Source: Candidatus Tayloriibacteriota bacterium (GTDB taxonomy: Bacteria > Patescibacteriota > Minisyncoccia > Phycocordibacterales > SIBU01). From it: a stretch of DNA of 56,733 bases. The DNA lies in contig JACPHR010000021.1 of NCBI GenBank assembly GCA_016188455.1, positions 1 to 56,733 of the forward strand. The letters are read 5' to 3'. Made by a program: the position numbers and the translations under genes. This document shows positions 1,045-15,934 of the stretch, in pieces; within the stretch, counting starts at the first letter, position 1; every line of letters starts with the position of its first letter. The notes under the pieces were generated by a model that had not been told where the DNA came from, ran no database searches, and worked only from the letters and a program-made list of their open reading frames with translations.

Positions 1045-2514
1045 ATGACGAACTATATTGACTATGTATTTAAATTGAAAGACACTCTGCAGCAACTGCC
1101 GCAAGCCGCACTTTTACCGTTCTCGGACGATGAGCCGATAATGGTTATCCGAGATGTTGGCTTAACTCATGAACTCATTATGCATGATGTGGGAGTGCTA
1201 TGCGAGGCAATTCGGCAAGTTATCACCAAAGAAATCGTAGTGGAAAACTTTGAAGAAACTCTGCGAGAGAAATTCTCTGATGATGGGCAGGAAAAATTGG
1301 CGGGCGTAGTCGCAGATATTAACGAGAAAATTTTTGTCAAACTCCTACCGGCCTTAGGCATGAAAGCCCTGCCGATAGTGCCGAAACCTGCGGTTGTTCC
1401 TGCGGCGGCGGAGTCCGCGACGCCGACGCCGCCTCCCCACGAGCCAGTAGTCTTCAAAGGATTCATTGGGCAACCGCGCCAAATCTACCAACAGCCGGTG
1501 AAAACCGCTACGGAGCCGCCAAGGCCGAAACCGCCGATTGTGGAAGTGAGCCATGAAAGAATGTCCGAAAAACCTTTGGATTCCTTTTTGAAAATGCTCT
1601 CGGATAAATTAAGCGAAAGGGAACTGCAGAACCGCTTTGACAAACTGCCTTACACCCTGAAGACCGCTTTGCGCTCCGTGGATTCGGCCAAAAAAGTGGT
1701 GGACATCGGCCGAAAATACGCTCTGCATGTGGACCAGCTCGGCGAACTGGGCGCGGAAACCGGTTTAGTGATTTTGGGCATCAGCCATCCGGCCCAATTC
1801 CTGCCGCGGCTCACAAGAAAGCTCGCCTTAAGCGAGGAAAAAGCCCGGCCAATCGCCCAAGAAATCAACACTGAGATATTTCTTAAAATCCGCGAGGCCC
1901 TAAAACAAATCAATGAGGAACCCGTACAGCCGCTTCAGGGCCTTCGGCCTGCCGCGCCGGCGCAAACAACGGGCGCTTGGCGCCCTTCGCCGCCGCCAGA
2001 ACATCAAGGTTCAACCTTGATGAAACCACGGCCTTCTCTTTCTTCTCCCCGACTTTCAAACTTGCGCACCAGCAACTTTCAAACTTCCGAGGCTTCTGAA
2101 GCCGAGGAGTCCCTTAACCGCGAAGCCATTTTGAAAGGCATTGAAAACCCGGTGCCGACTCCTTCGTCGCAAAACTCCTCAGGATCTCCGGCGAGTACGT
2201 CTCCGACCCGCCTAACAACTAACAACTCTGAACTAAAAACTGCTCCGGTTCCGCCGAATCTGCCGGGAGAAACCGAGGCGCCGCCGTTTACTGCCCAAAC
2301 CGCGCCCCAACCTCAAAAACCCCCCGAAGCCAAGCCCGAATCTCCAGTGCCTCCGTCTTCAGACTCTTCGCAACTTTCTAAACTTGCGGACTTACGCACT
2401 TCTCCAACTACTTCTGATGCAAACATCGTGGACCAGAAGCTTTCCGCCGTTGTCGCCGCCCCGAAATCCGAGAGTCAGTACGCGATGGACCCCTACCGCG
2501 AGCCGCTCGGCTGA
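1045..2514 (+). CDS. hypothetical protein with Pro/Ser/Thr-rich C-terminal half
   Basis: 489-aa ORF starting 15 nt after the previous stop. The N-terminal part looks globular and the C-terminal ~200 aa are low-complexity P/S/T-rich. No family recognised. Confidence 0.45.
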   Translation: MTNYIDYVFKLKDTLQQLPQAALLPFSDDEPIMVIRDVGLTHELIMHDVGVLCEAIRQVITKEIVVENFEETLREKFSDDGQEKLAGVVADINEKIFVKLLPALGMKALPIVPKPAVVPAAAESATPTPPPHEPVVFKGFIGQPRQIYQQPVKTATEPPRPKPPIVEVSHERMSEKPLDSFLKMLSDKLSERELQNRFDKLPYTLKTALRSVDSAKKVVDIGRKYALHVDQLGELGAETGLVILGISHPAQFLPRLTRKLALSEEKARPIAQEINTEIFLKIREALKQINEEPVQPLQGLRPAAPAQTTGAWRPSPPPEHQGSTLMKPRPSLSSPRLSNLRTSNFQTSEASEAEESLNREAILKGIENPVPTPSSQNSSGSPASTSPTRLTTNNSELKTAPVPPNLPGETEAPPFTAQTAPQPQKPPEAKPESPVPPSSDSSQLSKLADLRTSPTTSDANIVDQKLSAVVAAPKSESQYAMDPYREPLG

Positions 2515-2530
2515 AAGCCAGAGCGGCTTC

Positions 2531-2587
2531 GAAATGGAAAGTGGAAAAATTAAAATGGAAAATGACAAATCAAAATTTAAAATTGAA
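2531..2587. repeat. family-C inverted-repeat element, left arm (loaded copy)
   Basis: GAAATGGAAAGTGGAAAAATTAAAATGGAAAATGACAAATCAAAATTTAAAATTGAA. Its reverse complement matches the right arm at 2927-2982 and the arms at 6500-6617 and 47803-47936 (core TGTCATTTTCCAyTTTrAT). Confidence 0.7.
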
Positions 2588-2926
2588 TTCCGAAAACGTT
2601 TATATTCCTGGGTTCTGAAATTGATTAAATTTATAGACAAACTGCCAAGAAATTCCGGCAGTGATGTAATGGGAAAACAATTGTTGAGAAGCGGGACAAG
2701 TGTTCTTGCTAATTACATAGAAGCGGGTTCCGCGAGTTCTAAACGGGATTTTATAAACTTTTTTACTCATTCACTTAAATCAGCAAACGAGTCGGAAATC
2801 TGGCTTAACCTCTTAAGAGATACGAATAATGGCGATAAAATATAATCTGATTTCCTGTTAAGGGAACTGAAAGAAATTAGTAACATAATTGCCTCAAGTA
2901 TTTTGACCATGAAAGAGAAACGATAA
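2534..2926 (+). pseudogene. four-helix-bundle protein (23S rRNA intervening-sequence protein family) interrupted by an in-frame TAA
   Basis: The translation from ATG 2534 (..FRKRLYSWVLKLIKFIDKLP..GKQLLRSGTSVLANYIEAGSASSKRDFINFF..SANESEIWLNLL) resembles the intact paralog at 11620..11994. There is a TAA at 2843-2845, and the same frame continues SDFLLRELKEISNIIASSILTMKEKR to the TAA at 2924-2926, which is the expected C-terminal helix. Confidence 0.6.
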
Positions 2927-2982
2927 TTTTTCATTTTTTCAACTGTCATTTTCCACTTTAATATTTTATTTTTCATTTAAAC
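2927..2982. repeat. family-C inverted-repeat element, right arm (loaded copy)
   Basis: TTTTCATTTTTTCAACTGTCATTTTCCACTTTAATATTTTATTTTTCATTTAA, complementary to 2531-2587. Confidence 0.7.
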
Positions 2983-2985
2983 AAC

Positions 2986-3414
2986 ATGCGCTTCCAAGTC
3001 CCACAATTCATTGAGGTTGAAGACAAGATTTTCGGACCGCTGACGGTCAAGCAATTCATTTACCTGGCCGGCGGCGCCGGGCTCTGCTTTATCATCTATA
3101 CTTATCTGCCCTTCTACCTCGCCATCTTAGCCATTATTCCCGTGGCGACGCTCGCCGTCGCCTTGGCGCTCTACAAAGTCAACAACCGCGCTTTCATTTT
3201 CGTCATTGAAGCGGCTTTCAAATATCTTCTGGCGAACAAGCTTTACATCTGGAAGAAAACGGACAGAAAAATAGAAACCAGAAAAATAGAAAAAGAAGCG
3301 CCGGCAGTTTACGTGCCCAGACTCTCCGACAGCAAGCTCAAAGACTTGACTTGGAGTTTAGACATCAACGACAGCGCCAGCCTAGGAGCATCGGAGACGA
3401 TGCGGAAGGGCTAG
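2986..3414 (+). CDS. PrgI-family small membrane protein (T4SS-associated)
   Basis: The N-terminus MRFQVPQFIEVEDKIFGPLTVKQFIYLAGG followed by two adjacent TM helices is the signature I recall for PrgI-family proteins of Gram-positive conjugation loci. It lies upstream of a VirB4-like ATPase. Confidence 0.6.
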   Translation: MRFQVPQFIEVEDKIFGPLTVKQFIYLAGGAGLCFIIYTYLPFYLAILAIIPVATLAVALALYKVNNRAFIFVIEAAFKYLLANKLYIWKKTDRKIETRKIEKEAPAVYVPRLSDSKLKDLTWSLDINDSASLGASETMRKG

Positions 3415-3416
3415 CG

Positions 3417-3465
3417 CATTCATACCAATATACGAATTATACGAATGCTACAAATAACTACTAAT
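3417..3465. repeat. family-A (ATTAGTA/ATTCGTA-type) inverted-repeat element, left arm (loaded copy)
   Basis: CATTCATACCAATATACGAATTATACGAATGCTACAAATAACTACTAAT. It aligns with the left arms at 4575, 7580 and 46539, and is complementary to 3860-3908. Confidence 0.75.
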
Positions 3466-3846
3466 AAGGGGAAAAAGGTAGAGCTACTATACCCTGAACT
3501 ATCCTATAAGATAACTGGCGTTTGTTTCGCCGTACATAACGCGTTGGGACAATTCGCCCGAGAGAAACAGTATGGCGACTTGCTGGAGAAAAAATTTGCC
3601 GAAGCCGGAATGATATTTCAGAGGGAATTACTCGTTGGAAATATCGGCAACATTCTGGATTTTGTAGTAGAAAATAAAATCATTGTTGAACTTAAAGCGA
3701 AACGGCTGATACTTGCCGAGGATTATCGCCAACTGCAAAATTACCTCCAAGAATCCGGGCTACAACTCGGCTTGCTCATAAATTTCAGAAATAAATATCT
3801 AAAACCCGCACGGGTCGTTAGAATAGAAAAATATGTGGTAAAATAG
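3445..3846 (+). CDS. GxxExxY protein (PD-(D/E)xK-like; family known from 23S rRNA intervening sequences)
   Basis: ELLYPELSYKITGVCFAVHNALGQFAREKQYGDLLEKKF...VVENKIIVELKA...YRQLQNYL..GLQLGLLINF is the typical layout and ExxY core of this ~130-aa family. The first 7 codons lie inside the left repeat arm. Confidence 0.75.
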   Translation: MLQITTNKGKKVELLYPELSYKITGVCFAVHNALGQFAREKQYGDLLEKKFAEAGMIFQRELLVGNIGNILDFVVENKIIVELKAKRLILAEDYRQLQNYLQESGLQLGLLINFRNKYLKPARVVRIEKYVVK

Positions 3847-3859
3847 AAAAGCAATTTCT

Positions 3860-3908
3860 GTATCATTCGCAGTTATTAGTAGTATTAGTATAATTCGTAT
3901 ATTGGTAT
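3860..3908. repeat. family-A inverted-repeat element, right arm (loaded copy)
   Basis: GTATCATTCGCAGTTATTAGTAGTATTAGTATAATTCGTATATTGGTATG. Its last bases supply the ATG of the next ORF (3907). Confidence 0.75.
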
Positions 3909-4554
3909 GGCCAGTCCCACAAAGGCGACGCAGGAGTTCGTGCCGGTCAAAGAAGTCCGCGACGGCATTATCATTCTCAAAGACGGCTCGTTCCGCGCCG
4001 TTCTTATGACATCGTCCTTAAATTTCGCCCTCAAATCGGAGGATAATCAAAACGCCATCATCTTGCAGTTTCAAAACTTCCTCAATTCGCTTGATTTTTC
4101 CATCCAGCTGTTTATTGAATCCAGAAAGCTGGACATCAGGCCGTATCTGGCGCTCCTGGAAGGCCGATACAAAGAACAGGCGACCGACCTGATGAAGGTC
4201 CAGACCAGAGAATACATAGAATTCATTAAAAATTTCACGGAGAACGCGAGCATCATGACCAAAACTTTTTTCGTGGTCGTACCTTACGCGCCGGCGCCGC
4301 TCCAAGCCAAAGGCGGAGTGGTGGAGCTGGCCGGCAAACTGCTAACGCGTAAGGAGGCCGAAGAGAAAGTGGAGAAAAAGCAGGATACCTTTGAAGAAAA
4401 CCGCAGCCAGCTTTTGCAGCGGCTATCGGTGGTGGAGCAAGGCTTGCTGCGCTGCGGCATCAGGGCCGTGGAGCTAGGCACGGAAGAAGTGGTTGAGTTG
4501 TTTTATAAGATTTTCAATCCCGGCGACACCGAGAAGCCCATTCAGATAAATTAG
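3907..4554 (+). CDS. hypothetical protein resembling the N-terminal (non-ATPase) domain of Gram-positive VirB4/ConE proteins
   Basis: ATQEFVPVKEVRDGIIILKDGSFRAVLMTSSLNFALKSEDNQNAIILQFQNFLNSLDFSIQLF resembles the N-terminal region of conjugative VirB4-type ATPases. It has no Walker motifs and lies directly upstream of the ATPase gene. Confidence 0.45.
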   Translation: MASPTKATQEFVPVKEVRDGIIILKDGSFRAVLMTSSLNFALKSEDNQNAIILQFQNFLNSLDFSIQLFIESRKLDIRPYLALLEGRYKEQATDLMKVQTREYIEFIKNFTENASIMTKTFFVVVPYAPAPLQAKGGVVELAGKLLTRKEAEEKVEKKQDTFEENRSQLLQRLSVVEQGLLRCGIRAVELGTEEVVELFYKIFNPGDTEKPIQIN

Positions 4555-4574
4555 TCCCTAATTTATCTGAAGTT

Positions 4575-4682
4575 GATACCAATATACTAATGCATACGAA
4601 TCTACAAATAACTGCGAATGGAACTCACTCTTTTTCACATTAGTAGTTATTCGTAGTATTAGTATAATTAGCAGATTAGTAT
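4575..4682. repeat. family-A inverted-repeat element (empty, ~17-nt loop)
   Basis: Left arm GATACCAATATACTAATGCATACGAATCTACAAATAACTGCGAATG and right arm CATTAGTAGTTATTCGTAGTATTAGTATAATTAGCAGATTAGTAT. It fills the 3907..4554 / 4681..6501 spacer, and the ATG at 4681 lies at the arm end. Confidence 0.75.
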
Positions 4683-6501
4683 GAGTTTTTTAAATAATCT
4701 ATTCGGTAAAAAACAGAAGGCACCGGACATCGCCTCCATTTTACCTCAGGAAATCTACGAGGCCGGCGTGCTGGAGCTCAAAGACGTCATCGCGCCGTCG
4801 GCTTTGAAAGTAACCCCTAGGGCGCTTAACCTCGGCGACAAAATCGTCCGCACCTTTTTCGTCATTTCCTACCCGCGATTTCTTGCCGCCGGCTGGTTCT
4901 CGCCCATTATCAACCTTGATAAGGCCTTTGACATCGCCATCTTCGTCCACCCGATTGACACTGCCACGGTGCTCCGCCAGTTCCAGAAAAAAGTGGCCGA
5001 GGTCCAAAGCCAAATCAGCGGCCGGGAAAAGAAAGGCCTGGTCCGGGACCCGATGCTTGACACCGCTTATCAAGACCTTGAGCGGCTGCGCGACAACTTG
5101 ATGCAAGCGCAGGAGAAGCTCTTTGACGTCGGTCTCTACATTTCAATCTACGGGGACAACGAAACGGAGCTGGACAAGCTTGAATCAGAAATAAAGTCCC
5201 TTCTGGAATCAAAGCTAATCTACCTCAAACCCGCCCTCTTCCAGCAGGAGCAGGGTTTTAGGAGCGTTATGCCTATAGCCCAAGATGAGCTGATGATTCA
5301 TTCCAAACTCAACTCCGCGCCGCTCTCCTCTCTGTTTCCATTTACCTCTTTTGACCTGACCTCCGACAAAGGCATTCTCTACGGCATCAACCGGCACAAC
5401 TCTTCCCTGGTGCTCTTTGACCGTTTCAGTTTGGAAAACTATAACTCAATCGTGTTCGCCAAGAGCGGCGCGGGCAAGAGCTATATGGTTAAGCTTGAGA
5501 TTCTCCGAACACTGATGTTTGACACCGAGGTCATCGTCATTGACCCGGAGAGGGAGTACGAGTACATGGCCGAAGCCACCGGCGGCAAATACTTTACCAT
5601 TTCGCTCAACTCGCCCCACCACATCAACCCTTTTGACCTCCCCATACCTCGGGAAGACGAATCCAGCACGGACGTCTTGCGCTCCAATACCATAAATCTC
5701 GTCGGCCTCTTCAGAATTATGTTGGGCGGGCTGACCCCGGAAGAGGACGCTTTGATTGACCGCGCCATCAGCGAAACTTACGCTCTCAAAGACATCACGC
5801 CGGACTCTGATTTCAAAAACGTGGAGCCACCGCTGCTATCGGACTTTGAGCTGGTGCTCGCCGGCATGGAAGGCGGGGACTCGCTGGTCCAGCGCTTGAG
5901 CAAGTACACCCGAGGCACTTGGGCCGGCTTCATCAACAGGCCGTCAAACATAGATATTGATAGCAAATTCATCGTCTTCTCGCTCCGCGACATGGAAGAC
6001 GAACTCAAACCGGTGGCCATGTACATCGTGATGCACCACATTTGGACTGCCATCAGGAAAAACCTAAAGAAGCGGCTTATGGTTATTGACGAAGCCTGGT
6101 GGATGATGAAATCCGACGACACGGCCTCGTTTTTGCTCAGCTTGGCCAAGCGGGGACGCAAATATTACTTGGGTCTCGCCACTATCACCCAGGACGTGGA
6201 CGACTTCCTGAAATCCTCCTACGGCTTGCCCATCATCACCAACTCCTCCATTCAGATGCTTTTGAAGCAGTCGCCATCATCCATTGACCGGGTGCAAAAA
6301 GTCTTCAACCTCACCGACGAAGAAAAATACCTTTTGCTGGAGTCGGATGTCGGCGAAGGCATCTTTTTCGTCGGTCTGAAGCATGTGGCCATTAAAGTCA
6401 TCGCCTCATACACCGAAGACCAGATTATCACTTCCGACCCGTCGCAACTCTTGGCCATCAAAGAGGCGAAGAAAGACCTAGAGACATCGCAGGGGAATTG
6501 A
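4681..6501 (+). CDS. virB4: VirB4/TraC/ConE-like type IV secretion ATPase
   Basis: Walker A AKSGAGKSYMVK, Walker B-like RLMVIDEAWWMM and a long N-terminal VirB4-type domain (YPRFLAAGWFSPIINLDKAFDIAIFVHP). 606 aa. Confidence 0.8.
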   Translation: MSFLNNLFGKKQKAPDIASILPQEIYEAGVLELKDVIAPSALKVTPRALNLGDKIVRTFFVISYPRFLAAGWFSPIINLDKAFDIAIFVHPIDTATVLRQFQKKVAEVQSQISGREKKGLVRDPMLDTAYQDLERLRDNLMQAQEKLFDVGLYISIYGDNETELDKLESEIKSLLESKLIYLKPALFQQEQGFRSVMPIAQDELMIHSKLNSAPLSSLFPFTSFDLTSDKGILYGINRHNSSLVLFDRFSLENYNSIVFAKSGAGKSYMVKLEILRTLMFDTEVIVIDPEREYEYMAEATGGKYFTISLNSPHHINPFDLPIPREDESSTDVLRSNTINLVGLFRIMLGGLTPEEDALIDRAISETYALKDITPDSDFKNVEPPLLSDFELVLAGMEGGDSLVQRLSKYTRGTWAGFINRPSNIDIDSKFIVFSLRDMEDELKPVAMYIVMHHIWTAIRKNLKKRLMVIDEAWWMMKSDDTASFLLSLAKRGRKYYLGLATITQDVDDFLKSSYGLPIITNSSIQMLLKQSPSSIDRVQKVFNLTDEEKYLLLESDVGEGIFFVGLKHVAIKVIASYTEDQIITSDPSQLLAIKEAKKDLETSQGN

Positions 6502-6617
6502 AAATTAAAATATTAAAAATCAAAGTGACAATGAAAAGTTAAAAATTACTAATTCCTCGTATCCAGAAGTTTTTAATTTTAATCTGTCATTTTCCATTTT
6601 GATATTTCATTTTTCAT
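6500..6617. repeat. family-C inverted-repeat element (empty)
   Basis: Left arm GAAAATTAAAATATTAAAAATCAAAGTGACAATGAAAAGTTAAAAATT and right arm GTTTTTAATTTTAATCTGTCATTTTCCATTTTGATATTTCATTTTTCAT. It fills the virB4 / 6630 spacer. Confidence 0.75.
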
Positions 6618-6629
6618 ATTCACCTAGTT

Positions 6630-7574
6630 ATGGCACAAAAACTTTGGTCTGAAAACAAAGAGAAAAAGAAAGATGGACCAGACATCTCCAACACCGAGTG
6701 GGGTATGGTAATCTCGCTTCTTTTTATAGTTGACGGCATTCAAATCGGTCTTGACCTCTTGTTTCAAATAGGCGTTATTGTCAACCGCTTTATTGATGTC
6801 GTGGTGGGGTTCGCCTGGCCGACTTACCTCTACTTGCGCGGCGTGAACTTGAAAAGCGTGAAGGTGGTCGGTAGTATACTGCTGACTTTTTTCCTTGAGG
6901 AAATCCCCGATGTGGACGCTTTGCCGCTTTGGGGCGCCGACGGGCTCTTCGTGCTTTCTGTCACCAAAGCGGAAGAAAAAATTAAAGAGGAAACGGGGGT
7001 TGATGTTGAAAAAGCCGCGGCGCTTGCCGGAGGAGGGGGCACGGTGGAAAGTGAGGGGGGCGGTTTGGCCGCGGGCGAAGCGGCGGAAGCAGGCGGCGCG
7101 GCGGCCGAGGGGACGGCAGGGGCAAGAGGGGAAGCTGAAACTTTGGCAGAGGGTGAAGGGGTTGGAGCGGCTGAAGGAGGGGAAAGGGGCGGAGTGGAAG
7201 CCGAAGGGCCTCCTGGAGCGGCTGAAGGAGAAGGTGAAGAGGAAGAACAAAAAGAGGGAACGCAAGAACAAGCAAGAGAGAAAAAAGAAAAGGAGGGTGA
7301 GGAAACGCCGGAAGAAAAAAAGAAAAAAGAAGGAGAGGAAAAGGCTAAAGGGGAAGACAAGAAAAGACCTCGAGCTCGCGAGGAAGGTTTTGGTTTCGGC
7401 GGAGGTCAAGGGAGGAGGGAAGGCGCGGCGGGAGCGGGTTCCGACCCTCTCAATTTGCGAGGGGGGCCAGACGAAAGGCGAAAATCTGAAAAAGAGTCCG
7501 AGCGCTTGCACAGCAACCTTTTGGACCTGTCGCTCTCCTACGGCGAACGGAAGAAGCGGCAGGAAGAGGAGTAG
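6630..7574 (+). CDS. membrane protein with long Gly/Ala/Glu/Lys-rich disordered tail
   Basis: The N-terminal ~110 aa contain 3-4 hydrophobic helices. The remainder is GA-rich low complexity (GEAAEAGGAAAEG.., EEKKKKEGEEK). Operon context supports this frame; the other open frames here are artefacts of the purine-rich tract. Confidence 0.5.
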   Translation: MAQKLWSENKEKKKDGPDISNTEWGMVISLLFIVDGIQIGLDLLFQIGVIVNRFIDVVVGFAWPTYLYLRGVNLKSVKVVGSILLTFFLEEIPDVDALPLWGADGLFVLSVTKAEEKIKEETGVDVEKAAALAGGGGTVESEGGGLAAGEAAEAGGAAAEGTAGARGEAETLAEGEGVGAAEGGERGGVEAEGPPGAAEGEGEEEEQKEGTQEQAREKKEKEGEETPEEKKKKEGEEKAKGEDKKRPRAREEGFGFGGGQGRREGAAGAGSDPLNLRGGPDERRKSEKESERLHSNLLDLSLSYGERKKRQEEE

Positions 7575-7579
7575 ATAAA

Positions 7580-7690
7580 CATACCAATATACTAATGCAT
7601 ACAAATCTACGAATGGCTACTAATGTTACAACTGAGAGTCTGATTCGTAGTTATTAGTAGTATTAGTATAATTCGTATATTGGTATTGGT
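7580..7690. repeat. family-A inverted-repeat element (empty)
   Basis: Left arm CATACCAATATACTAATGCATACAAATCTACGAATGGCTACTAATG and right arm GATTCGTAGTTATTAGTAGTATTAGTATAATTCGTATATTGGTATTGGT. Confidence 0.75.
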
Positions 7691-7715
7691 GCCTGCCAAG
7701 TGATAAAATAGAACC

Positions 7716-8747
7716 GTGATGAAATACTTCTTTATTGCACTTTTGCTAATATCCGCCACATTAGTACCGAATGGTGTCTATGGACAGGCCTTCCAAAGCC
7801 TCGGCGGCGAGGCAAGTAATGTGACTGTGCGCACCGAACCGCCAGCGCCCGGGCCAAACCAGTTTGTCAGCGCCATTATTGAAAGTTACGCCACGGACCT
7901 CAACCGCGCCGACATTGCTTGGTTCCTCAACAACAAGTTGGAAAAGGAAGCCGTCGGCGCAAAAACCTTTCTGTTCAAAACCGGCAGAGCCGGCAGCGTC
8001 TCAAATATTTTGATTGTCATAAAAACGGCCGAAGGCGAAACTCTCCAGCAAGTTCTCAACATCCGGCCCGCGTCGCTTGACCTCGTCTGGGAGGCCCAGT
8101 CCTACACGCCGCCTTTCTACCGCGGCAAAGCCCTTTACCCCTATCAAGGAACGGTCAAGCTCGTGGCCATGCCGAATATCGTAACTGAAACCGGCGCGAC
8201 CGTAAGCGCTAAAAATCTTGTTTATACCTGGTCAGTGGATGGCGATGTTGTCACCAGACTTTCAGGCTACGGTAAGAATTTCATATTTTTTAACGGCTCT
8301 ATACCGCTCGGCCCCGCGACCATTGAAGTGGAAGCGGCGTCACTTGACAAAAAATACAAAGCCACGGGCTCGGTGACACTCAGCCCGCAGGGCTCGGAAG
8401 TTTTGGTTTATGAGGACAATCCGCTCTACGGCGTGCTTTACAATAAAGCGCTCGGGGGCAATGTCACGCTCCAAAACGAGGAGATTAAACTAGCCGGCAT
8501 CCCTTATTTCATCGGGGTGAAGGAGCGGGAGAACGCCGGTCTCGCTTACGAATGGCGGCTGAACAACGAGCTGGTCAGCGGCGGGGCCAAAAGCAGTCTG
8601 GCCTTCAAACAGAGCGGCGGCGCGGGCGGCACAGCCTTGGTCTCGCTTCAAATTTCCAATCCGGCTAAAATTTTCCAATTTGCCAACGTCAGTCTTTCCT
8701 TGTCCTTCGGCCAAAAATCAGCCCCCAACTTATTTGGAGCGCCATGA
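7716..8747 (+). CDS. secreted hypothetical protein
   Basis: Signal-peptide-like N-terminus MKYFFIALLLISATLVPNGVYGQA. Its stop overlaps the next start (ATGA at 8744-8747), indicating translational coupling with the pilin-like gene. Confidence 0.5.
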   Translation: MMKYFFIALLLISATLVPNGVYGQAFQSLGGEASNVTVRTEPPAPGPNQFVSAIIESYATDLNRADIAWFLNNKLEKEAVGAKTFLFKTGRAGSVSNILIVIKTAEGETLQQVLNIRPASLDLVWEAQSYTPPFYRGKALYPYQGTVKLVAMPNIVTETGATVSAKNLVYTWSVDGDVVTRLSGYGKNFIFFNGSIPLGPATIEVEAASLDKKYKATGSVTLSPQGSEVLVYEDNPLYGVLYNKALGGNVTLQNEEIKLAGIPYFIGVKERENAGLAYEWRLNNELVSGGAKSSLAFKQSGGAGGTALVSLQISNPAKIFQFANVSLSLSFGQKSAPNLFGAP

Positions 8748-9679: not shown

Positions 9680-9693
9680 CCTGTGTCAAAAAT

Positions 9694-9741
9694 ATGTCCA
9701 AAAAAACCGCCTTCATTATCATAATTATATTTGTCCTCCTT
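9694..9741 (+). repeat. direct repeat: duplicated first 16 codons of the gene at 10354
   Basis: ATGTCCAAAAAAACCGCCTTCATTATCATAATTATATTTGTCCTCCT matches 10354-10401 (ATGTCCAAAAAAACCGCCGCAATTATTATAATCGTCTTCGTCCTCCT) at about 40/48 positions. This copy hits TAA after 16 codons. Confidence 0.8.
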
Positions 9742-10249: not shown

Positions 10250-10353
10250 AAACGCACCGCGCAGACACAAAGACTGCGAGATGCGTTTCCTTATGGATAC
10301 TGGAATAGTAGCAAACTGCAGAAAGAAGTCAAGCAAAAAGGTATAATAAACCC

Positions 10354-11589
10354 ATGTCCAAAAAAACCGCCGCAATTATTATAATCGTCTTCGTCCTCCT
10401 CATCGCCGGAGGTTTCCTGGCTTTCTATTTTTACGCCAACCAAGACCAGGACAACAACATCGTCGGGCCGGAGAGTCGCGGCAATATTTTCCCGACCAGC
10501 CCCGCCGCCGGAGGCGCCCAAACTCAGGGTGGCGCGGCGCCAAGCCCGCAACCGCCCGCCGAAAGCGGCACCCGGGCGGCACCGGTGCTTAAAGAACTTT
10601 CAGAGCGCCCTAGTGCTGGGGCGGTGGCGCTGGCCGCATCATCAACCGTACTCGTGCGTTTTGTTGAACGGGGCACGGGCAATGTCTATGAGGTCGGGCC
10701 GGCGCGAGATGGTGAAACCCGCCTCTCCAATACCACTGTGCCAAAAATAGAAGAGGTCTTGTGGCATAAGGACGGCAGAAAAGTCATCCTCCGTTACGCC
10801 GGCGATGACGGCGACTCCATCAAAACTTACAGCGCCTCTCTCGCCGCCAAAGCCTCAGGGGAAGCCGAGGACTCGCTCCAAGGAGCCTTTCTGACTGAAA
10901 ATATCCGGGCGGTGGCGGCAAATCCCGACCAAAACAAGCTGTTCTATCTCTTGCAAGACGCGGGCGGCAGCACCGGCATCATAGCAGAATTTGACGGCGC
11001 CAGAAAAACCCAAATCTTTGATTCGCTCCTACAGGAATGGCTTGTGGCATGGCCGACGCCAACGACTGTTGCCCTCACGAGCAAACCTTCCGCGGGGGTC
11101 CCGGGCTTTTTGTTTCTTTTGAACACCCGAACCGGCGCCCTGACTCGGGCCATATCGGGCATCAAGGGTCTAACGGCTCGGGTCAGCCCGACCGGCTCGC
11201 TGGTCCTTTATGGGGAAAGTCTCCCCCAAGGGCTTTCCTTAAAAATTTATCCTTTTAGTAACGCATCCTTGCGAGAAACGGCCGTGGCCACCCTGCCCGA
11301 AAAATGCCTTTGGTCAAAAAACGACCCGGGGGCTTTATACTGCAGCGTGCCGTCGTACCTGCCAACCGGCAACTACCCCGACGACTGGTACAAAGGGCTG
11401 GTGGCGTTCTCGGATGACATTTGGAAAATTGACAGCCGGACGGGGGCGGGAGAACTACTGGCAAAGCTTAAAGATAACACTGCAAAAGACATAGACGGCA
11501 TCAACCTGTTTATGAGCCCGAGAGAAGATTATCTTTTCTTCATCAACAAAAACGATTTTCATCTATGGAGTTTGCGGATTCAAAACTGA
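10354..11589 (+). CDS. membrane-anchored hypothetical protein (possible beta-propeller ectodomain)
   Basis: N-terminal TM helix (AAIIIIVFVLLIAGGFLAFYF), a Pro/Ala-rich linker and a ~330-aa beta-rich region. No family recognised. Confidence 0.5.
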   Translation: MSKKTAAIIIIVFVLLIAGGFLAFYFYANQDQDNNIVGPESRGNIFPTSPAAGGAQTQGGAAPSPQPPAESGTRAAPVLKELSERPSAGAVALAASSTVLVRFVERGTGNVYEVGPARDGETRLSNTTVPKIEEVLWHKDGRKVILRYAGDDGDSIKTYSASLAAKASGEAEDSLQGAFLTENIRAVAANPDQNKLFYLLQDAGGSTGIIAEFDGARKTQIFDSLLQEWLVAWPTPTTVALTSKPSAGVPGFLFLLNTRTGALTRAISGIKGLTARVSPTGSLVLYGESLPQGLSLKIYPFSNASLRETAVATLPEKCLWSKNDPGALYCSVPSYLPTGNYPDDWYKGLVAFSDDIWKIDSRTGAGELLAKLKDNTAKDIDGINLFMSPREDYLFFINKNDFHLWSLRIQN

Positions 11590-11624
11590 ATAACTTATGA
11601 CTAACAACTGAATTACTGAATGAC
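11585..11624. repeat. family-B (CTGAATGAC-type) inverted-repeat element, left arm (loaded copy)
   Basis: CTGAATAACTTATGACTAACAACTGAATTACTGAATGACC, complementary to 11994-12033. Same family as 14284-14379. Confidence 0.7.
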
Positions 11625-11994
11625 CATGAGAAGATTTAGATTTTTGGATTGGGATGTATACAAAGACGCACGACGATTGTTTGTTGTTATTCTGTCTATC
11701 GTAAAGAAACTCCCAAAAGAATATCGCTATGAAATAGGTAGCCAAATTATCCGTGCTTGTTTCTCTGTGGTACTAAACATTGCGGAGGGAAGTGGAAAAC
11801 ACTCTGAAGCTGAACTTAATCGTTTTTTTGATATAGCCCTTGGTTCTTTGTTTGAAACACTGGCTGCGGTAGATGTATTACGCGAATGCACCTTAGTTGA
11901 AGAAAAAGTATTTTTTGAAGTTGAAAAATTAGCAACAAGTATTTCCAACCAACTTGGTGGATTCAAAAAACACATACGAGGGGGTTCCATCTAG
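11620..11994 (+). CDS. four-helix-bundle protein (23S rRNA intervening-sequence protein / Avd-like family)
   Basis: 124 aa. F.FLDWDVYKDARRLF..I..KLPKEYRYEIGSQIIRACFSVVLNIAEGSGKHSEAELNRFFDIALGSLFETL..L is the characteristic pattern of this family. Confidence 0.8.
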   Translation: MTMRRFRFLDWDVYKDARRLFVVILSIVKKLPKEYRYEIGSQIIRACFSVVLNIAEGSGKHSEAELNRFFDIALGSLFETLAAVDVLRECTLVEEKVFFEVEKLATSISNQLGGFKKHIRGGSI

Positions 11995-12033
11995 TTATTC
12001 AGTCATTCAGTAATAAGTCGTTTGTCATTCAAT
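11994..12033. repeat. family-B inverted-repeat element, right arm (loaded copy)
   Basis: GTTATTCAGTCATTCAGTAATAAGTCGTTTGTCATTCAAT. Confidence 0.7.
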
Positions 12034-12498
12034 ATTTCTCTCGATATATTTAATCACCACTCTTCGCGACGCCCCTTGGCCGGTTGATTCCGTTTTAATA
12101 TCAGGCGACCCCGCCAGAAAGGAGTGAACGAGCATGCGCTCGTAGGCAGACATGGGGTCAAGCTCTATATCCACCTTGAAAGACCGCGCCCGTTCGCACA
12201 TCACTTTGGCCTTGGCTTTCAGGACTTCCAAGGTCTTATCATGGTAATCGTTGACGTCAATAAAAAACTTTTCAGGCGCCTCATCTCCGGCCTGTTTGGC
12301 CGCAATCCTGCGAACAATGTAATTGAAAGCCCCCAAATGCTCGCCGTTCTGGCCGATAAGCAAAGGCGACTCGTCGGTGCGCACCAGGAAACGCACGTGG
12401 TTTGATTGCGGATTTTCAATCCGCTCAATGCTTTCAAAGCGCACATTCATGAGCTTTAAAAGACCTTCCATGATTGCCTTGGCGTCGGGGCCTGCCAT
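12025..12498 (-). CDS. jag: Jag/KhpB-type KH + R3H RNA-binding protein
   Basis: KH-like LLIGQNGEHLGAFNYIVR and C-terminal R3H region (ERMLVHSFLAG..IKTESTGQGASRRVVI). Conserved position downstream of yidC. Confidence 0.75.
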   Translation of the reverse strand: MAGPDAKAIMEGLLKLMNVRFESIERIENPQSNHVRFLVRTDESPLLIGQNGEHLGAFNYIVRRIAAKQAGDEAPEKFFIDVNDYHDKTLEVLKAKAKVMCERARSFKVDIELDPMSAYERMLVHSFLAGSPDIKTESTGQGASRRVVIKYIERNIE

Positions 12499-12534
12499 GG
12501 CACCACTATACTACAAGGCATGAGAAAACGCCCG

Positions 12535-12641
12535 TCCCGTTAGAAAGTCCTGCAAAATTACTGTTCACTGTATACTAAAGCCGCGGAAGAAAAAACAAGA
12601 GAGCTGCGGCCAAATTTTTGTTGGTGAGACTTCTAACGGGA
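12535..12641. repeat. family-E (CCCGTTAGAAG-type) stem-loop element
   Basis: Arms TCCCGTTAGAAAG (12535-12547) and ACTTCTAACGGGA (12629-12641). Related copies at 14476-14588 and 32612-32732. Confidence 0.6.
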
Positions 12642-12683
12642 CCCGTATTGTTAAAAGCCCTCTAAAATCGTGAAATTGAACGG

Positions 12684-12716
12684 CTGACCAGTCAACCTGG
12701 CAGGTTGACTGGTCAC
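12684..12716 (-). terminator. hairpin immediately downstream of yidC
   Basis: CTGACCAGTCAACCTGGCAGGTTGACTGGTCAC has a 13-14 bp stem starting 3 nt after the yidC stop. There is no clear U-run, so its terminator function is uncertain. Confidence 0.4.
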
Positions 12717-12718
12717 TA

Positions 12719-13510
12719 CTAATTCTGCTCTTTCTTATTCGTAGCTATTAGCATATTAGTATCCATTGGTATATTGGTATGGCGTGAGCCAAAAAAAGAC
12801 CGCCTGACGTAAAGCTCCTGGCCAATGGCAAAAAGGTTGCTGGTAATCCAGTAAAGAGAAACCGCGCCAGGAAGATTGAAAGCAAAGACCCCGACAAGGG
12901 CTGGCAGGAAGTAACGCATTTGGAAATTAAGGTTTCTGGCGAAATCATCCTTCATAGAAACTCCAGGCGCTTTAGGCTTTATGGCCGGCATAGAGAATCG
13001 AACTTGAAAATACTGGCTGACGGAAACCAGAATCGCAAGCAAGAGAGAGCCTTTGGTAATATCAACAAAGCCCAAAAAATACATGGTAACTTTAGGGGCG
13101 GAAACTAAAGGGTACAGCAAGTCAGTTTTAATTTCAGGCAAGCCGCCGCTGTAAAAAATATAGTAGAGGGCAAAAATGATGGGGATTTGGATAAGCACCA
13201 GAAAAAAAGTGGAAAAAGGGTTAACCTTTTTTTCTTTGTAGAAAGCCATGGTCGCCTTGGCGTGGGCTTCTCGGTCGCCTTTGTGTTTTTCTTTCAGAAG
13301 AGCGAGGTCGCTTTCAAGCGCTTTCATCTTAAGCTGGGTCCTCGTGGCTTTTTGTGAAAGCGGAAAGAGAATGAGCTTGACTAGGAAGGTAAAAACAACC
13401 ACCGAGATTCCGGCGTCGGCCCAGGGCATGATACTCATGAGAAAAATCAGGCCGTTGTAGAGTGGTTGGTATACGACAAGATTAAAAAAATGACTGAGCA
13501 TGACAAACAC
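12719..13510 (-). CDS. yidC: YidC/Oxa1-family membrane protein insertase
   Basis: Short Gram-positive-type YidC: VVFTFLVKLILFPLSQKATRTQLKMKAL, PFSTFFLVLIQIPIIFALYY, NLFAIGQ. Conserved rnpA-yidC-jag order. The last ~20 codons are encoded by a family-A repeat arm. Confidence 0.85.
   Translation of the reverse strand: MFVMLSHFFNLVVYQPLYNGLIFLMSIMPWADAGISVVVFTFLVKLILFPLSQKATRTQLKMKALESDLALLKEKHKGDREAHAKATMAFYKEKKVNPFSTFFLVLIQIPIIFALYYIFYSGGLPEIKTDLLYPLVSAPKVTMYFLGFVDITKGSLLLAILVSVSQYFQVRFSMPAIKPKAPGVSMKDDFARNLNFQMRYFLPALVGVFAFNLPGAVSLYWITSNLFAIGQELYVRRSFFGSRHTNIPMDTNMLIATNKKEQN
12735..12782. repeat. family-A repeat, solo right-arm-type copy overlapping the yidC 3' end
   Basis: TTATTCGTAGCTATTAGCATATTAGTATCCATTGGTATATTGGTATGG aligns with the right arms at 3860, 7642, 33212 and 53422. 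Confidence 0.7.
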
Positions 13511-13560
13511 TATAATACTAAAATAAGAATTATACTAATCCTACAAATAGCTGCGAACTA
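13511..13560. repeat. family-A repeat, solo left-arm-type copy
   Basis: TATAATACTAAAATAAGAATTATACTAATCCTACAAATAGCTGCGAACTA resembles the left arms at 4575 and 7580. Confidence 0.5.
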
Positions 13561-13564
13561 TAGA

Positions 13565-13678
13565 GCACAAAACACAATATCCAAAATCCAAACAAAACAC
13601 AGATGTTCAGAACACGAACCAAGCATTGTTTGTGAAATTTGGAATGTTTTGTGTTTTGTTTGGATTTTGTGTATGTAC
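13565..13678. repeat. family-D stem-loop (AAAATCCAAACAAAACACA-type) in the rnpA-yidC spacer
   Basis: The left arm ..CCAAAATCCAAACAAAACACAG is complementary to the right arm TGTTTTGTGTTTTGTTTGGATTTTGTG (19-nt perfect core). Confidence 0.6.
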
Positions 13679-13708
13679 GCGCTTTGCGTTTTGTTGATAA
13701 TGTGAGTG

Positions 13709-14050
13709 TCAACCAATAACCCCCGACTTTTTTAATATCGTTTGTATCTCAGGATTTAACCCCGAGAGTGCCCGAGCATCAATTTTCTTTTTGATAAAGA
13801 AGGCGGACAGACTACCCGGCCTGGCGATAGGAAGAAACGAGTGGAGAACGCCGTAGACTCGGCGTTTTATGCCGTTTCTCCTGACCGCGCTTTTCTCAAG
13901 TTTTTTAGGCACCGCCACGGAAAATTTCGCCGGCTTATCGTTGTTGCCAAAAAAAACCCGAAGCGAAAAACCTGCCGAGTGATAACTTCGGCCTTTTCGC
14001 ATAAGAACCTTGAAAAGGTCCCGGCTGACCTTTCGTTTCGCGGGAATCAT
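13709..14050 (-). CDS. rnpA: ribonuclease P protein component
   Basis: 113 aa and basic. FSLRV..., KFSVAVPKKLEKSAVRRNGIKRRV is the RnpA signature region. Located between rpmH and yidC. Confidence 0.8.
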   Translation of the reverse strand: MIPAKRKVSRDLFKVLMRKGRSYHSAGFSLRVFFGNNDKPAKFSVAVPKKLEKSAVRRNGIKRRVYGVLHSFLPIARPGSLSAFFIKKKIDARALSGLNPEIQTILKKSGVIG

Positions 14051-14148
14051 CGGAGTAGAATAAAGATTAAAGAATCGCGATTCAAGAATAAAACAAGAAA
14101 AACCCGCCTCCAGTTATCTCTTACTTGAATCTTAAATCGTGAATCTGT

Positions 14149-14283
14149 TTATATCGCAAGTTTCTTTCGGCCTTTTTGCCGCCGCCGAGCGACTATTGCT
14201 CGGCCGCCCGGTTTTTTCTGCCGCGCCAAAAAGCCGTGGGTTCTGGCGCGCTTCTTCTTTTTAGGTTTGTAGGTGAAGCTCAT
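14149..14283 (-). CDS. rpmH: 50S ribosomal protein L34
   Basis: Not in the ORF track (44 aa). Hand translation gives [44 protein letters not shown], the classic L34 pattern (..R..THGF..R......GR.V...RR.KGRK.L). It lies upstream of rnpA. Confidence 0.85.
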
Positions 14284-14379
14284 GATGAATGACAAATCAC
14301 TGATAACTGAATGACTGAATGACAAACACCTTTATTGTGTGATTCAGTAATTCAGTTATAAGTTATCAGTTATTCAGTG
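14284..14379. repeat. family-B inverted-repeat element (empty) in the rpmH-dnaA spacer
   Basis: Left arm GATGAATGACAAATCACTGATAACTGAATGACTGAATGACAAAC and right arm GTGTGATTCAGTAATTCAGTTATAAGTTATCAGTTATTCAGTG. Confidence 0.7.
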
Positions 14380-14387
14380 TCCCCACT

Positions 14388-14426
14388 TTGTCCACATATT
14401 ATAAACATATCTGACGATTTTCCACA
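14388..14426. promoter_or_regulatory. DnaA-box-like 9-mers upstream of dnaA
   Basis: TTGTCCACA (14388-14396) and TTTTCCACA (14418-14426) each have one mismatch to TTATCCACA. Confidence 0.45.
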
Positions 14427-14475
14427 AGTTTGACGGCGGTTAAATAAGTATATAATGGGAAACACTTTAACATGG

Positions 14476-14588
14476 TCCCGTTAAAAGCTTACAAACAGCC
14501 CTTATAACATTTTTATGCCAAGCCGCGCAGATTTAATAAATAATAAAGCGTACGGAAACGACTGGGTCGTTCCCCGCTTCTAACGGGA
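14476..14588. repeat. family-E stem-loop element ending at the dnaA start codon
   Basis: Arms TCCCGTTAAAAGC (14476-14488) and GCTTCTAACGGGA (14576-14588). The last A is the A of the dnaA ATG. Confidence 0.55.
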
Positions 14589-15934
14589 TGGACAACGAGC
14601 AACTCTGGAAAAATGTGTTGGTGGAAATTGAACTGGCGGTCTCAAAAGCCAATTTCAATACCTGGTTTAAAGACACCCGGATCCTCAAGCAAGAGGAAGG
14701 GGTGGTCTTCGTATCGGTGCCCAACACCTTCGCCAAAGACTGGCTTTTCAACAAATACCACAAGATAATCATGAAAGCTTTGCGAAATCTGGCGGAGCAT
14801 ACCCGGGCGCTGGAATACGTCATTACCAAAGAAGAGCCGAAACAGAAAGAGCTTGAGCCGGCTCGGGGTGCTTTCTTGGCGGGCGCGCCGGAGCTGCCGC
14901 TTCAAGATTTTTACGTTGATAAAGACAACAATTTAAACCCCAGATACACTTTTGAATCTTTCGTGGTGGGGCCTTTCAACGAACTGGCCCACGCGGCGGC
15001 CCAAGCGGTGGTGAAAAAACCGGGCGCCGCCTACAACCCGCTTTTTATTTACGGCAACACCGGCCACGGCAAGACTCACCTTATCCAGGCCATCGGCAAT
15101 TACATTAAAAATCAAACCGCTGGCAAAAAAGTCTTTTACGTCACGTCGGAAAAATTCACCATTGATTACGTCAATTCGGTTCAAGCCAACAAGGCCAACC
15201 TCTTTAAAGAGCGGTACAGAAAATACGACGTGCTTATCATGGACGACATTCAATTTTTCTCCAACAAGGAACAAACCCAGGAGGAGCTATTTCATCTTTT
15301 CAATTCAATGTACGAGAGCAACAAACAAATCGTTTTTTCCTCCGACAAGCACCCCAACTTTATCCCTAATCTGGCGGACCGCTTGAAATCCCGCTTCGCG
15401 GCCGGCATGATTGTGGATATTCCGACCCCCGATCGCGAATCCCGCTTGGCCATTCTCAAAACAAAAGCGCGGCTTTCTGCCGTGTCCATCGCCGATGAAG
15501 TGCTGGAGCATTTGGCAACCACGATTGACGGCAACATCCGCGAACTGGAAGGCATGCTCAATGTTTTGGTCTGCCAATCACAGCTCAAAGGCAAAGAGCT
15601 CGGCTTAGGTGAAGTGAAACATCTCATTAAGAACAGCGCCAAACCGAAAAAGGCGGTGTCGGTAAAGGAGGTGACCAAGGCCGTGGCCAGCTTCTTCAAT
15701 ATTGAGGAAGAGGATATCTACGAAAAGACCCGCCGAAAGGAAGTGGTAAAGCCCCGCCAGCTCGTGATGTACATCCTGCGGGAAGATTTCAGCGTGTCTT
15801 ACCCTTTGATCGGCCAAAAGCTAGGCGGCCGCGACCACACGACAGTTATTCATTCCTGCGAGAAAATAAAAAATGAGTTGAAGTTAAACGCGGCGCTCGG
15901 CCAAGAGATTGACCAGATTCGAACCTTGCTCTGA
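14588..15934 (+). CDS. dnaA: chromosomal replication initiator DnaA
   Basis: AAA+ Walker A GNTGHGKTHL, Walker B VLIMDDIQF and the C-terminal DNA-binding signature SYPLIGQKLGGRDHTTVIHSCEKI. Confidence 0.95.
   Translation: MDNEQLWKNVLVEIELAVSKANFNTWFKDTRILKQEEGVVFVSVPNTFAKDWLFNKYHKIIMKALRNLAEHTRALEYVITKEEPKQKELEPARGAFLAGAPELPLQDFYVDKDNNLNPRYTFESFVVGPFNELAHAAAQAVVKKPGAAYNPLFIYGNTGHGKTHLIQAIGNYIKNQTAGKKVFYVTSEKFTIDYVNSVQANKANLFKERYRKYDVLIMDDIQFFSNKEQTQEELFHLFNSMYESNKQIVFSSDKHPNFIPNLADRLKSRFAAGMIVDIPTPDRESRLAILKTKARLSAVSIADEVLEHLATTIDGNIRELEGMLNVLVCQSQLKGKELGLGEVKHLIKNSAKPKKAVSVKEVTKAVASFFNIEEEDIYEKTRRKEVVKPRQLVMYILREDFSVSYPLIGQKLGGRDHTTVIHSCEKIKNELKLNAALGQEIDQIRTLL

Follow-up and report, generated by a model that had tools for sequence, protein, structure and literature searches.

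Intervening sequences (IVSs) are insertions found in helices of 16S and 23S rRNA. The 23S IVS of Coxiella burnetii is 428 nt long, is closed by a 28-bp terminal stem and carries a decaying open reading frame (ORF) of the S23p (four-helix-bundle) family; GACAGAT heptamers stand in tandem on the 5′ side of the stem, directly ahead of the ATG, and the stem is cleaved by RNase III (PMC4990558). After >25 years, where rRNA IVSs and S23p ORFs come from and what they do was still described as unclear (PMC4990558); ORFs of family PF05635 have been reported in 16S and 23S insertions of Candidate Phyla Radiation (CPR) bacteria (PMC11270868). Another set of sequences built from heptamers, direct repeats of TAACTGA, is known from Beggiatoaceae, Cyanobacteria and Bacteroidetes, where the repeats are abundant upstream of start codons and in ribosomal-protein operons (MacGregor 2015, PMC4679880). 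These repeats have no inverted partner except in one of 170 sets, and no hairpin and no associated gene; a binding protein was sought among S1, Csp and CsrA, with no mechanism or binder identified (PMC4679880). Here we describe long inverted-repeat elements, some of them with a small gene in the loop, which fill spacers of a type IV secretion system (T4SS)-like operon on contig JACPHR010000021.1 of a member of Paceibacteria (Parcubacteria, CPR). ‘The window’ below is this whole contig, 56.7 kb; the nearest public loci are labelled Taylorbacteria, Paceibacterota and similar. In the full-text literature we found no paper linking heptamer arrays, IVS proteins and operon junctions, a description outside the searched journals being possible.

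Hairpin elements at operon junctions

Folding showed that each of the five consecutive spacers between positions 2515 and 7715 is, over nearly its whole length, one long imperfect hairpin, as an original prediction made from the letters of the window had stated; the observation is real, and larger than first described. The arms of the five elements are 38–45 nt long and 70–89% Watson–Crick complementary. Two of the elements are loaded, i.e. have an ORF in the loop. Element 1 (2531–2982, plus strand), of arm family C, is made of the A-rich 7-nt units AAAATGG/AAAATGA; its arms at 2532–2575 and 2936–2978 (44 nt, 80% complementary) belong to arm regions that reach about 2532–2590 and 2926–2978, and a small GC hairpin (2515–2529) separates the upstream stop codon (2512–2514) from the left arm. 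Element 2 (3421–3909, plus strand), of family A, has units ATACNAAT/ATTNGTAT and arms at 3421–3465 and 3865–3909 (45 nt, 89% complementary). The other three, also on the plus strand, are empty: element 3 (family A, about 4575–4682; −29.4 kcal/mol, z = −4.3), located between the two VirB4 ORFs; element 4 (family C, 6498–6621; −26.4 kcal/mol, z = −5.8); and element 5 (family A, 7581–7686; −32.8 kcal/mol, z = −4.1), between the stop codon 7572–7574 and the start 7716/7719. The z-scores derive from 200 shuffles per element, and for elements 3–5 none of the 200 folded as stably as the native sequence. A covariance model built from family-A copies scored elements 3 and 5 at 73.5 and 75.6 bits, respectively.

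The elements are fitted closely between stop and start codons. The stem base lies 0–21 nt 3′ of the upstream stop, so the left arm does begin close behind it, as had been noticed; in element 4 the stop itself, TGA 6499–6501, is a part of the stem base, with the next ATG at 6630. On the other side, the ATG codons at 3907 (VirB4 N-domain) and 4681 are indeed inside the last stem pairs, while the remaining downstream starts are 7–30 nt past the stem base.

Two statements of the original prediction had to be narrowed. The filling of ‘every’ spacer of the operon holds for the five spacers between 2515 and 7715; no such element is present in spacers 1030–1044, 8744–8747, 9680–9730 and 10250–10353 of the same gene run. 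The arms, described as heptad repeats, are arrays of short units, but the unit period depends on the family: 9–10 nt in family A (ATACNAAT plus 1–2 nt), 7 nt in family C and about 8 nt in family B, introduced below. The similarity of arms to each other does exceed what AT-richness would give: with at most one mismatch ATACCAATATAC occurs 10 times in the window (0.10 expected), and ATTMGTAKNATTMGTA occurs 17 times (0.34 expected), the expectations being taken from dinucleotide-preserving shuffles. There was no Rfam match at E ≤ 1 across 2400–7800. Ungapped or blastn self-comparison was of little use for finding hairpins in general: gapped stems escaped it, and its output was noisy.

The plus-strand gene run that hosts the elements starts with two unknown genes (46–1029 and 1045–2514), followed by a PrgI/VirB3-like gene (2986–3414), an ORF for the VirB4 N-domain (3907–4554; ∼215 aa), an ORF for the VirB4 ATPase (4681–6501; ∼606 aa; NF045971, E = 1.9e-106), a gene of a membrane protein also present in relatives (6630–7574) and an unannotated ORF (7716–8747; start 7716/7719), all on the plus strand. 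For comparison we used 80 loci around VirB4 orthologues (77–91% aa identity), one per species (L001–L080), and a metagenomic sibling, L100, with VirB4 ATPase and N-domain 91% and 87% identical in amino acid sequence to those of the window.

In 62 of 79 loci the junction between the two VirB4 ORFs measures −4 to 24 nt, often 1–5 nt, and the ends of the proteins meeting there are conserved (..GDTEKPIQIN-stop and MSF..LFGKK..); the junction between PrgI and the VirB4 N-domain is ≤24 nt in about three quarters of loci. A scattered minority of species, and the window with them, have 45–660 nt at the same junctions; expansions of 45–170 nt are hairpins there, and those of 400–660 nt are a hairpin with an ORF. 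As the relatives have short junctions with conserved protein termini, the hairpins are insertions. We also considered that the hairpin at 4575–4682 had split a VirB4 gene. This was rejected: separate N-domain and ATPase ORFs were present in all 79 Paceibacteria loci having both parts, with junctions down to −4 to 1 nt. Judged from these sequences, the split VirB4 is ancestral; the two ORFs, mostly 1–16 nt apart or overlapping by 4 nt, recall the TrsD/TraD + VirB4 arrangement known from some Gram-positive systems.

Altogether, 14 genomes contained 27 junction elements that had 22 or more spanning pairs, each genome having an arm motif of its own (for example ATACGAA, GAGTTAn, CAACnnA, GCTTnTAGCTT, AAAATnA and CTAATT). 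In several genomes the host stop codon doubles as the first arm unit, e.g. TAGCTT.. in L066. In the sibling L100 all four junctions visible on the contig are filled, three of them with other arm families, and the sites that are loaded in the window are empty hairpins. Presence/absence polymorphism between related genomes, which the original prediction had proposed to look for, is thus observed both in the loci of relatives and in L100. Since L100 and 13 other species carry different arm families at the same junctions, these junctions have been hit repeatedly and the elements turn over fast. Loaded elements were found at 9 of 171 T4SS junctions versus 2 of 549 other co-directional junctions, a ∼15-fold enrichment; one of the latter two elements is directly upstream of PrgI.

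Several features of a different kind were seen at T4SS genes of the relatives. Selfish-looking small genes of other types fill the same T4SS junctions in L001 and L078: an ORF for a DUF559 (Vsr-like endonuclease) protein with its own GGAGG, between VirB4 and the next gene (L001, 9837–10268), and a pair of Gp49-like toxin and helix-turn-helix antitoxin upstream of PrgI (L078, 2657–3388). Another class of hairpins, with arms of 50–90 nt and 40–53% GC, occurs in relatives without unit-array elements (L015, 9822–9941; L021, 9052–9160; L025, 9821–9995; L034, 13907–14094; L017, 15213–15332); in L015 and L025 it is immediately 3′ of VirB4. A TATAAT is located ∼4–12 nt before the PrgI ATG, without a Shine–Dalgarno sequence, in L002, L012, L014, L015, L025, L027, L031 and L079, which suggests an internal promoter with leaderless or very short-leader mRNA.

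Cargo genes, arm motifs and further copies

The loop ORFs belong to the two families to which they had been assigned by eye. The ORF of element 1 (2534–2926, plus strand) is a four-helix-bundle (23S_rRNA_IVP) pseudogene matching TIGR02436 (E = 2.7e-21) and PF05635 (E = 2.1e-16); its ATG is inside the left arm, and it is interrupted by a single in-frame TAA at 2843–2845 (codon 104). The ORF of element 2 (3445–3846, plus strand) encodes an intact GxxExxY/PDDEXK_3 protein of 133 aa (TIGR04256, E = 5e-21; PF13366), also with its start codon inside the left arm; residues E61, D72 and E82-x-K84 are invariant in 6 homologues, and no solved structure matches this protein by sequence. A sixth loaded element, of family B with TAACTGA-type arms (11585–12030, plus strand), closes the same-strand gene run and has an orthologous element in the relative L201. 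Its cargo (11620–11994, plus strand) is an intact four-helix-bundle ORF (TIGR02436, E = 4e-25; PF05635) with the ATG in the arm; the arm 11585–11625 runs up to this ATG. The four-helix-bundle protein of the window matches a solved Xanthomonas protein of the S23p family, 2GSC, which is pentameric.

The family of the arms follows the family of the cargo. A GxxExxY gene was present in all five loaded family-A elements, which come from independent samples (the window, L001, L086, L122 and L192) and encode proteins 47–55% identical. Comparison of 21 four-helix-bundle cargos gave four clades, and a particular arm motif goes with each: A-rich arms with the KQLLRSGTS clade, AACT[GT]A-type heptamers with the RFRFLDWxVYKD clade, AGCT-based units with the DLIVWQKS clade and AAGAnTTA units with the fourth clade. 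The pairing of RFRFLDWxVYKD with AACT[GT]A is seen in Paceibacteria and recurs in one genome of Gottesmanbacteria and one contig of Nitrospinae, where the cassette likewise sits flush between a stop and the next ATG. Thus, a hairpin spreading independently of its cargo, as initially suggested, is contradicted by the data. As the arm motif tracks the cargo clade, the best reading of the empty hairpins is as derivatives of the cassettes without ORF; all full-length partners that were examined code for a four-helix-bundle or a GxxExxY protein, and an intermediate, a 202-nt element sharing its first ∼45 nt with its loaded neighbour, was found in L066.

Cargo ORFs were co-oriented with the upstream gene in 25 of 25 cases, an orientation that we attribute to transcription of the element within the host operon. 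Stems flanking the cargo genes had a median of 37 spanning pairs, compared with 17 for 492 size-matched control ORFs, a median that reflects the high background of arms-only RNAfold constructs; 84% of the cargo genes and 27% of the control ORFs had at least 25 spanning pairs. Between the window and L001 the GxxExxY cargos are 48% identical and the host genes 83–90%, so that orthology of the two cargos is uncertain; their synonymous divergence is saturated, which makes dN/dS uninformative.

At least eight further full or degenerate copies, besides the sixth loaded element, are located elsewhere in the window. An empty family-B (TAACTGA-type) hairpin at 14286–14376, with no strand assigned, lies in the rnpA–dnaA (origin) spacer (z = −5.4; 0 of 200 shuffles fold as well), and the minus strand of 14338–14376 reads TAACTGA/TAACTTA/TAACTGA. 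A hairpin of a fourth arm family with AAAATCCAAAC units (13577–13674, no strand assigned) adjoins a solo family-A arm (13515–13559), and an empty family-C copy (47802–47935, no strand assigned), 88% identical to the arm at 6567–6614, is between divergent genes. Degenerate family-A copies are present on the plus strand at 53380–53468 (48 bits, E = 4.5e-6, outside the training set), where the right arm stops 8 nt short of ATG 53476, and at 46538–46628 (upstream of tRNA-Arg; covariance model E = 0.009), and on the minus strand at 37523–37613 (the intercistronic spacer downstream of pilM in the pilus operon; E = 0.03) and 39409–39505 (intercistronic spacer 39406–39486; E = 0.045). A solo family-A right arm (31894–31938, plus strand) ends 3 nt before ATG 31942; similar solo arms are at 12737–12781 and 33214–33258. 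Arms have stops in all three frames in family B only. The covariance model detected seven copies at E < 0.05 in the 57-kb window and, in 1.11 Mb from 80 other species, its own training member only; each arm family is therefore lineage-restricted. Arrays of the CTAAAAAC / CTATAAAC type at 27953–27996, 29108–29133, 52429–52458 and 52745–52770 possibly represent solo arms belonging to a fifth family, and one such array is inside the annotated TsaE ORF (27718–28200).

A metagenome scan for the family-A terminus returned 120 loci, ∼45 of which had genuine arms (several ATTNGTA units); among the genuine loci ∼30 were empty hairpins of 70–110 nt and 3 were loaded. In contigs with unrelated genes the distance of an empty copy to the ORF on either side was mostly 0–18 nt, and co-directional genes enclosed 20 of 22 copies. 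Neither the window nor 20 of the family-A metagenome loci contained an rRNA gene. The arms are tandem arrays of 3–6 units in varying number, with unit variants shuffled, and end in conserved termini, CG-ATACCAATATAC ... GTATATTGGTAT-CG; the flanking pairs are inverted-complementary (CG/CG, TA/TA, AG/CT, TG/CA). Compensatory change, put forward earlier as a check, was found at the two outermost stem pairs only, with 10 double-change cells against 3.7 ± 1.7 in shuffles (0 of 500 shuffles reached 10), and not inside the arms, where the unit cores are invariant.

The window includes the replication origin (jag, yidC, rnpA, dnaA and dnaN, 12.0–17.3 kb). In this region (12028–17256) the minus strand carries jag/R3H, yidC and rnpA and the plus strand carries dnaA and dnaN; the rnpA–dnaA spacer, 537 nt long, contains the DnaA-box-like TTGTCCACA and TTTTCCACA in addition to the TAACTGA-type hairpin given above. 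From these genes and DnaA-box-like sites we infer that the T4SS-like operon is 2–14 kb from the likely oriC and points at it.

Other features of the window are recorded here. Between ruvB and the gene of a PilB-like ATPase, 24815–25372 is composed of 560 nt of nested near-perfect hairpins: 24815–24841 and 25029–25055 (93% complementary) enclose 24843–24928, then follow 25061–25095 and 25266–25372. No Rfam family was found there at threshold; the region may represent a structured RNA not recognised so far, or an element of another type. A 37% GC island (40423–42151) beside tRNA-Ser contains a 475-aa GIY-YIG + NUMOD homing-endonuclease-like ORF (40724–42148), and 40658–40682 is a 96% copy of the tRNA-Ser 3′-end; this looks like a mobile element integrated at a tRNA. 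In 46662–46897 the 3′-end of tRNA-Arg (GCG) is repeated twice behind the tRNA, first as an inverted copy (hairpin 46714–46799) and then as a partial direct copy (46861–46897). A 144-nt direct repeat, 90% identical, at 48387–48530 (the 3′-end of ruvA) and 49850–49993 brackets ∼1.3 kb that may be an insertion. The palindrome CCAGAAAAATCTTCACTGCTGAAGATTTTTCTGG found after each of tRNA-Lys and tRNA-Val (55557–55660 and 56094–56197) may be a shared terminator or processing hairpin.

Proposed origin and alternatives

We read the elements as selfish cassettes of intervening-sequence type that colonise stop–start junctions and give rise to ORF-less derivatives; we would assign this reading a probability of roughly 60%. 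A full element is a small promoterless gene (PF05635 or GxxExxY) between two inverted arms, each of 4–7 units of 7–10 nt, with the cargo start in or at the 5′ arm. It inserts exactly between a stop and the next start and would be transcribed as a part of the host operon. The long stem would bring the upstream stop and the downstream start together at its base, which could make the insert harmless by either of two routes: RNase III might cut the stem-loop out, as in rRNA IVSs, or the terminating ribosome might unwind the base of the stem and make the start downstream accessible, thus keeping translational coupling. The downstream genes are presumably coupled in this way because the ancestral junctions (e.g. 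TAAtATG) lack room for a Shine–Dalgarno sequence; translation of the cargo, its start being buried in the 5′ arm, would need the stem opened or cut. Loss of the ORF would leave empty hairpins of 70–170 nt that outnumber loaded copies, as miniature inverted-repeat transposable elements, or MITEs, outnumber their parents.

The encoded proteins would act on their own arms. We hypothesise that the GxxExxY protein, a predicted nuclease with invariant catalytic residues, is a candidate for such an actor. The preference for the T4SS may come from its tight junctions being flanked by unusually conserved coding sequence; conserved flanks would let an element pass between related genomes by homologous recombination, as with rRNA genes.

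Several observations weigh against a mobile cassette that functions as an RNA hairpin. The window has no near-identical pair of copies (arms are 72–88% identical) and shows no sign of current activity; flanks of 25 family-A copies had no direct target-site duplication, and no transposase domain was detected among 40 proteins of this contig that were scanned. Solo arms right before starts (31894 and 53423) suggest that arms may act alone. Unit-centre positions pair at chance (29 Watson–Crick pairs versus 25.6 expected), so with its invariant cores the stem is a chain of 3–4-bp blocks split by unconstrained positions. The sense strand was more stable than the antisense in 18 copies versus 9 (mean −2.2 kcal/mol, p = 0.095, a trend only), with G·U pairs numbering 78 versus 66, and empty family-A copies occur in both orientations, 12 versus 7, if orientation is read off the alignment from the conserved C·A / U·G asymmetry near the stem base. 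The architecture is not universal to PF05635 either: a search of plasmids of cultured organisms gave two distant four-helix-bundle genes only, both from Pseudanabaena, and the one that was examined had no arms.

How do other explanations account for the same data? One could suppose that the elements are cis-regulatory modules serving the host, similar to repetitive extragenic palindromes (REPs) and the mosaic elements composed of them (BIMEs), with roles in mRNA stability, processing, internal promoters or coupling and with the ORFs as incidental passengers. The flush position at junctions in many operons would suit this idea, as would solo right arms ending 3–8 nt before start codons, the TATAAT-like hexamers in right arms (one promoter-like match is 10/12, at 3866–3894) and the proposal that TAACTGA arrays upstream of starts in Beggiatoaceae are sites of a post-transcriptional regulator (PMC4679880). 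Yet in most related species the highly conserved operon does with element-free junctions of 0–24 nt, close siblings have unrelated arm families at one junction, and copies decay, as seen in the pseudogene cargo and the degenerate arms; the promoter scan was weak as well (10 sites versus 5.4 ± 2.5 in shuffles). We regard a host-serving role as unlikely. An origin as derivatives of an ordinary DNA transposon (MITEs or mobile insertion cassettes), with transposase supplied in trans, arms acting as double-stranded terminal inverted repeats (TIRs) and the hairpin irrelevant, seems improbable to a similar degree. Such derivatives would explain the inverted termini, the many ORF-less copies, the lineage-restricted families, the presence/absence polymorphism, the lack of significant strand asymmetry in stability and the two orientations of empty copies; the junction bias would follow from an AT-rich target preference combined with purifying selection, and the transposase could lie elsewhere in the genome, the window being one contig. 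What they do not explain is the missing direct duplication together with inverted-complementary, covarying flanking dinucleotides, complementarity that spans the whole arm down to a small loop rather than the tips alone, and an arm motif that co-varies across phyla with the clade of a non-transposase cargo; besides, the targets are spacers of 1–16 nt, which are hard to reach by random insertion.

Growth in place is very unlikely. If junction microsatellites expanded by slippage and became palindromic by template switching, with ORFs captured later, this would account for the tandem arrays of variable unit number (3–6) with shuffled unit variants, for the host stop serving as the first unit as in L066, and for indels in 7-nt steps such as those reported for TAACTGA arrays (PMC4679880). 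But copies of one family, with the conserved termini CG-ATACCAATATAC..., turn up at numerous unrelated loci and in numerous samples, the link of cargo and arm motif extends across phyla, and the process cannot yield a conserved gene of 120 aa. The simplest idea, a by-product of AT-rich, low-complexity intergenic sequence, could point to the GC content of the spacers, 26–31% against ∼49% in the genome; it can hardly be entertained, being refuted by the shuffles for arm matches (10 versus 0.1 expected) and for the folds of elements 3–5 and of the 14286–14376 hairpin, and by the copies that the covariance model finds in independent samples.

If the selfish-cassette reading is right, the IVS architecture in protein operons, with its derivatives and cargo-tracking arms, would mean that rRNA IVSs fill one of the niches in which a broader selfish cassette lives. 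It would link two unexplained literatures, that on the origin of rRNA IVSs and that on intergenic heptamer arrays, and a PF05635 protein encoded between TAACTGA-type arrays is a concrete candidate for the factor behind the heptamer repeats. Hundreds of natural variants are supplied for comparative work. An insert of 100–500 nt tolerated in junctions that were ancestrally 0–16 nt long and without Shine–Dalgarno sequence amounts to a natural experiment in how CPR bacteria, not yet cultured, couple translation and process mRNA. In practical terms, the elements inflate the ‘intergenic’ DNA of very compact genomes, cause breaks in assemblies and can lead gene callers astray, and their arm families are fast-evolving strain markers.

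Comparison with known systems

Integron cassettes are promoterless small co-oriented ORFs with an imperfect attC hairpin, and ORF-less cassettes exist; attC occurs once, on the 3′ side of the ORF, its use needs IntI and an attI platform, and the cassettes are arrayed. The elements described here have arms on both sides of the ORF and are dispersed among housekeeping genes.

MITE-like palindromes (Correia/NEMIS of Neisseria, enterobacterial ERIC, REP/BIME) are short, non-autonomous and intergenic, form hairpins in mRNA and show presence/absence polymorphism. Correia elements reportedly serve as substrates of RNase III and donate promoters, and they have a TA duplication with defined TIRs, while REPs are GC-rich palindromes of 20–40 nt with a conserved GTAG-type head, tied to RAYT transposases of the Y1 (IS200-like) type. 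Enterobacterial RU elements are MITE-like palindromic repeats co-transcribed with genes (PMC2759123). The window’s elements have in common with MITEs the inverted repeats, the many short copies and the polymorphism. Unlike Correia elements and REPs, they show no direct target duplication and no transposase-bearing partner; their arms are unit arrays of 35–55 nt and 26–33% GC, their parents encode a four-helix-bundle or a PD-(D/E)XK protein, and there is no Y1 transposase among the scanned proteins.

Units of the P6b region in the Nostoc tRNA-Leu(UAA) group I intron are degenerate heptanucleotides that expand and contract. One of two repeat motifs is always involved in the P6b stem-loop (PMC4476775). 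Like our elements, P6b is a stem-loop of repeat motifs, and it is situated in RNA that is removed from the host transcript, as may hold for the junction hairpins. Unlike them, it belongs to a self-splicing intron, contains no ORF and has nothing to do with operon junctions.

Family B resembles the TAACTGA repeats in having TAACTGA or close variants in arrays that end a few nucleotides before starts. Like those repeats, the elements are found inside operons, with indel and presence/absence differences between close relatives. TAACTGA arrays are limited to family B, families A and C using other units.

The likeness to rRNA IVSs is more extensive. The suggestion that the elements have an IVS-like architecture agrees with the Coxiella IVS in the terminal stem, the small ORF at the 5′ arm and the tandem units (PMC4990558). 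With the IVSs of Coxiella and Leptospira the elements share long-stem inverted repeats, a PF05635 ORF in the loop that is prone to decay, ORF-less versions and, presumably, transcription inside a host transcript; in the window the long stem encloses a PF05635 ORF, starting in the arm, at 2534–2926 and at 11620–11994. They differ from rRNA IVSs in their place, which is a stop/start junction of a protein operon and not a 16S or 23S rRNA helix, in longer arms (35–55 nt) of several motif families, and in a second cargo, GxxExxY; in the IVS literature examined, a role as IVS ORF is documented for the four-helix-bundle family only, not for GxxExxY.

One could speculate that rRNA IVSs, pre-start heptamer arrays and the junction hairpins of CPR bacteria are all one ‘intervening sequence for operons’, with a protein that recognises its own arms and a stem that hides the insert, although we consider so broad a class doubtful. 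The insert would then be hidden either by RNase III excision or by passage of the ribosome from stop to start at the stem base, which would be a prokaryotic counterpart of termination-dependent ribosome shunting. The closest known kind of element, in any case, is the rRNA IVS with an S23p ORF: the anatomy is the same and the defining location is different.

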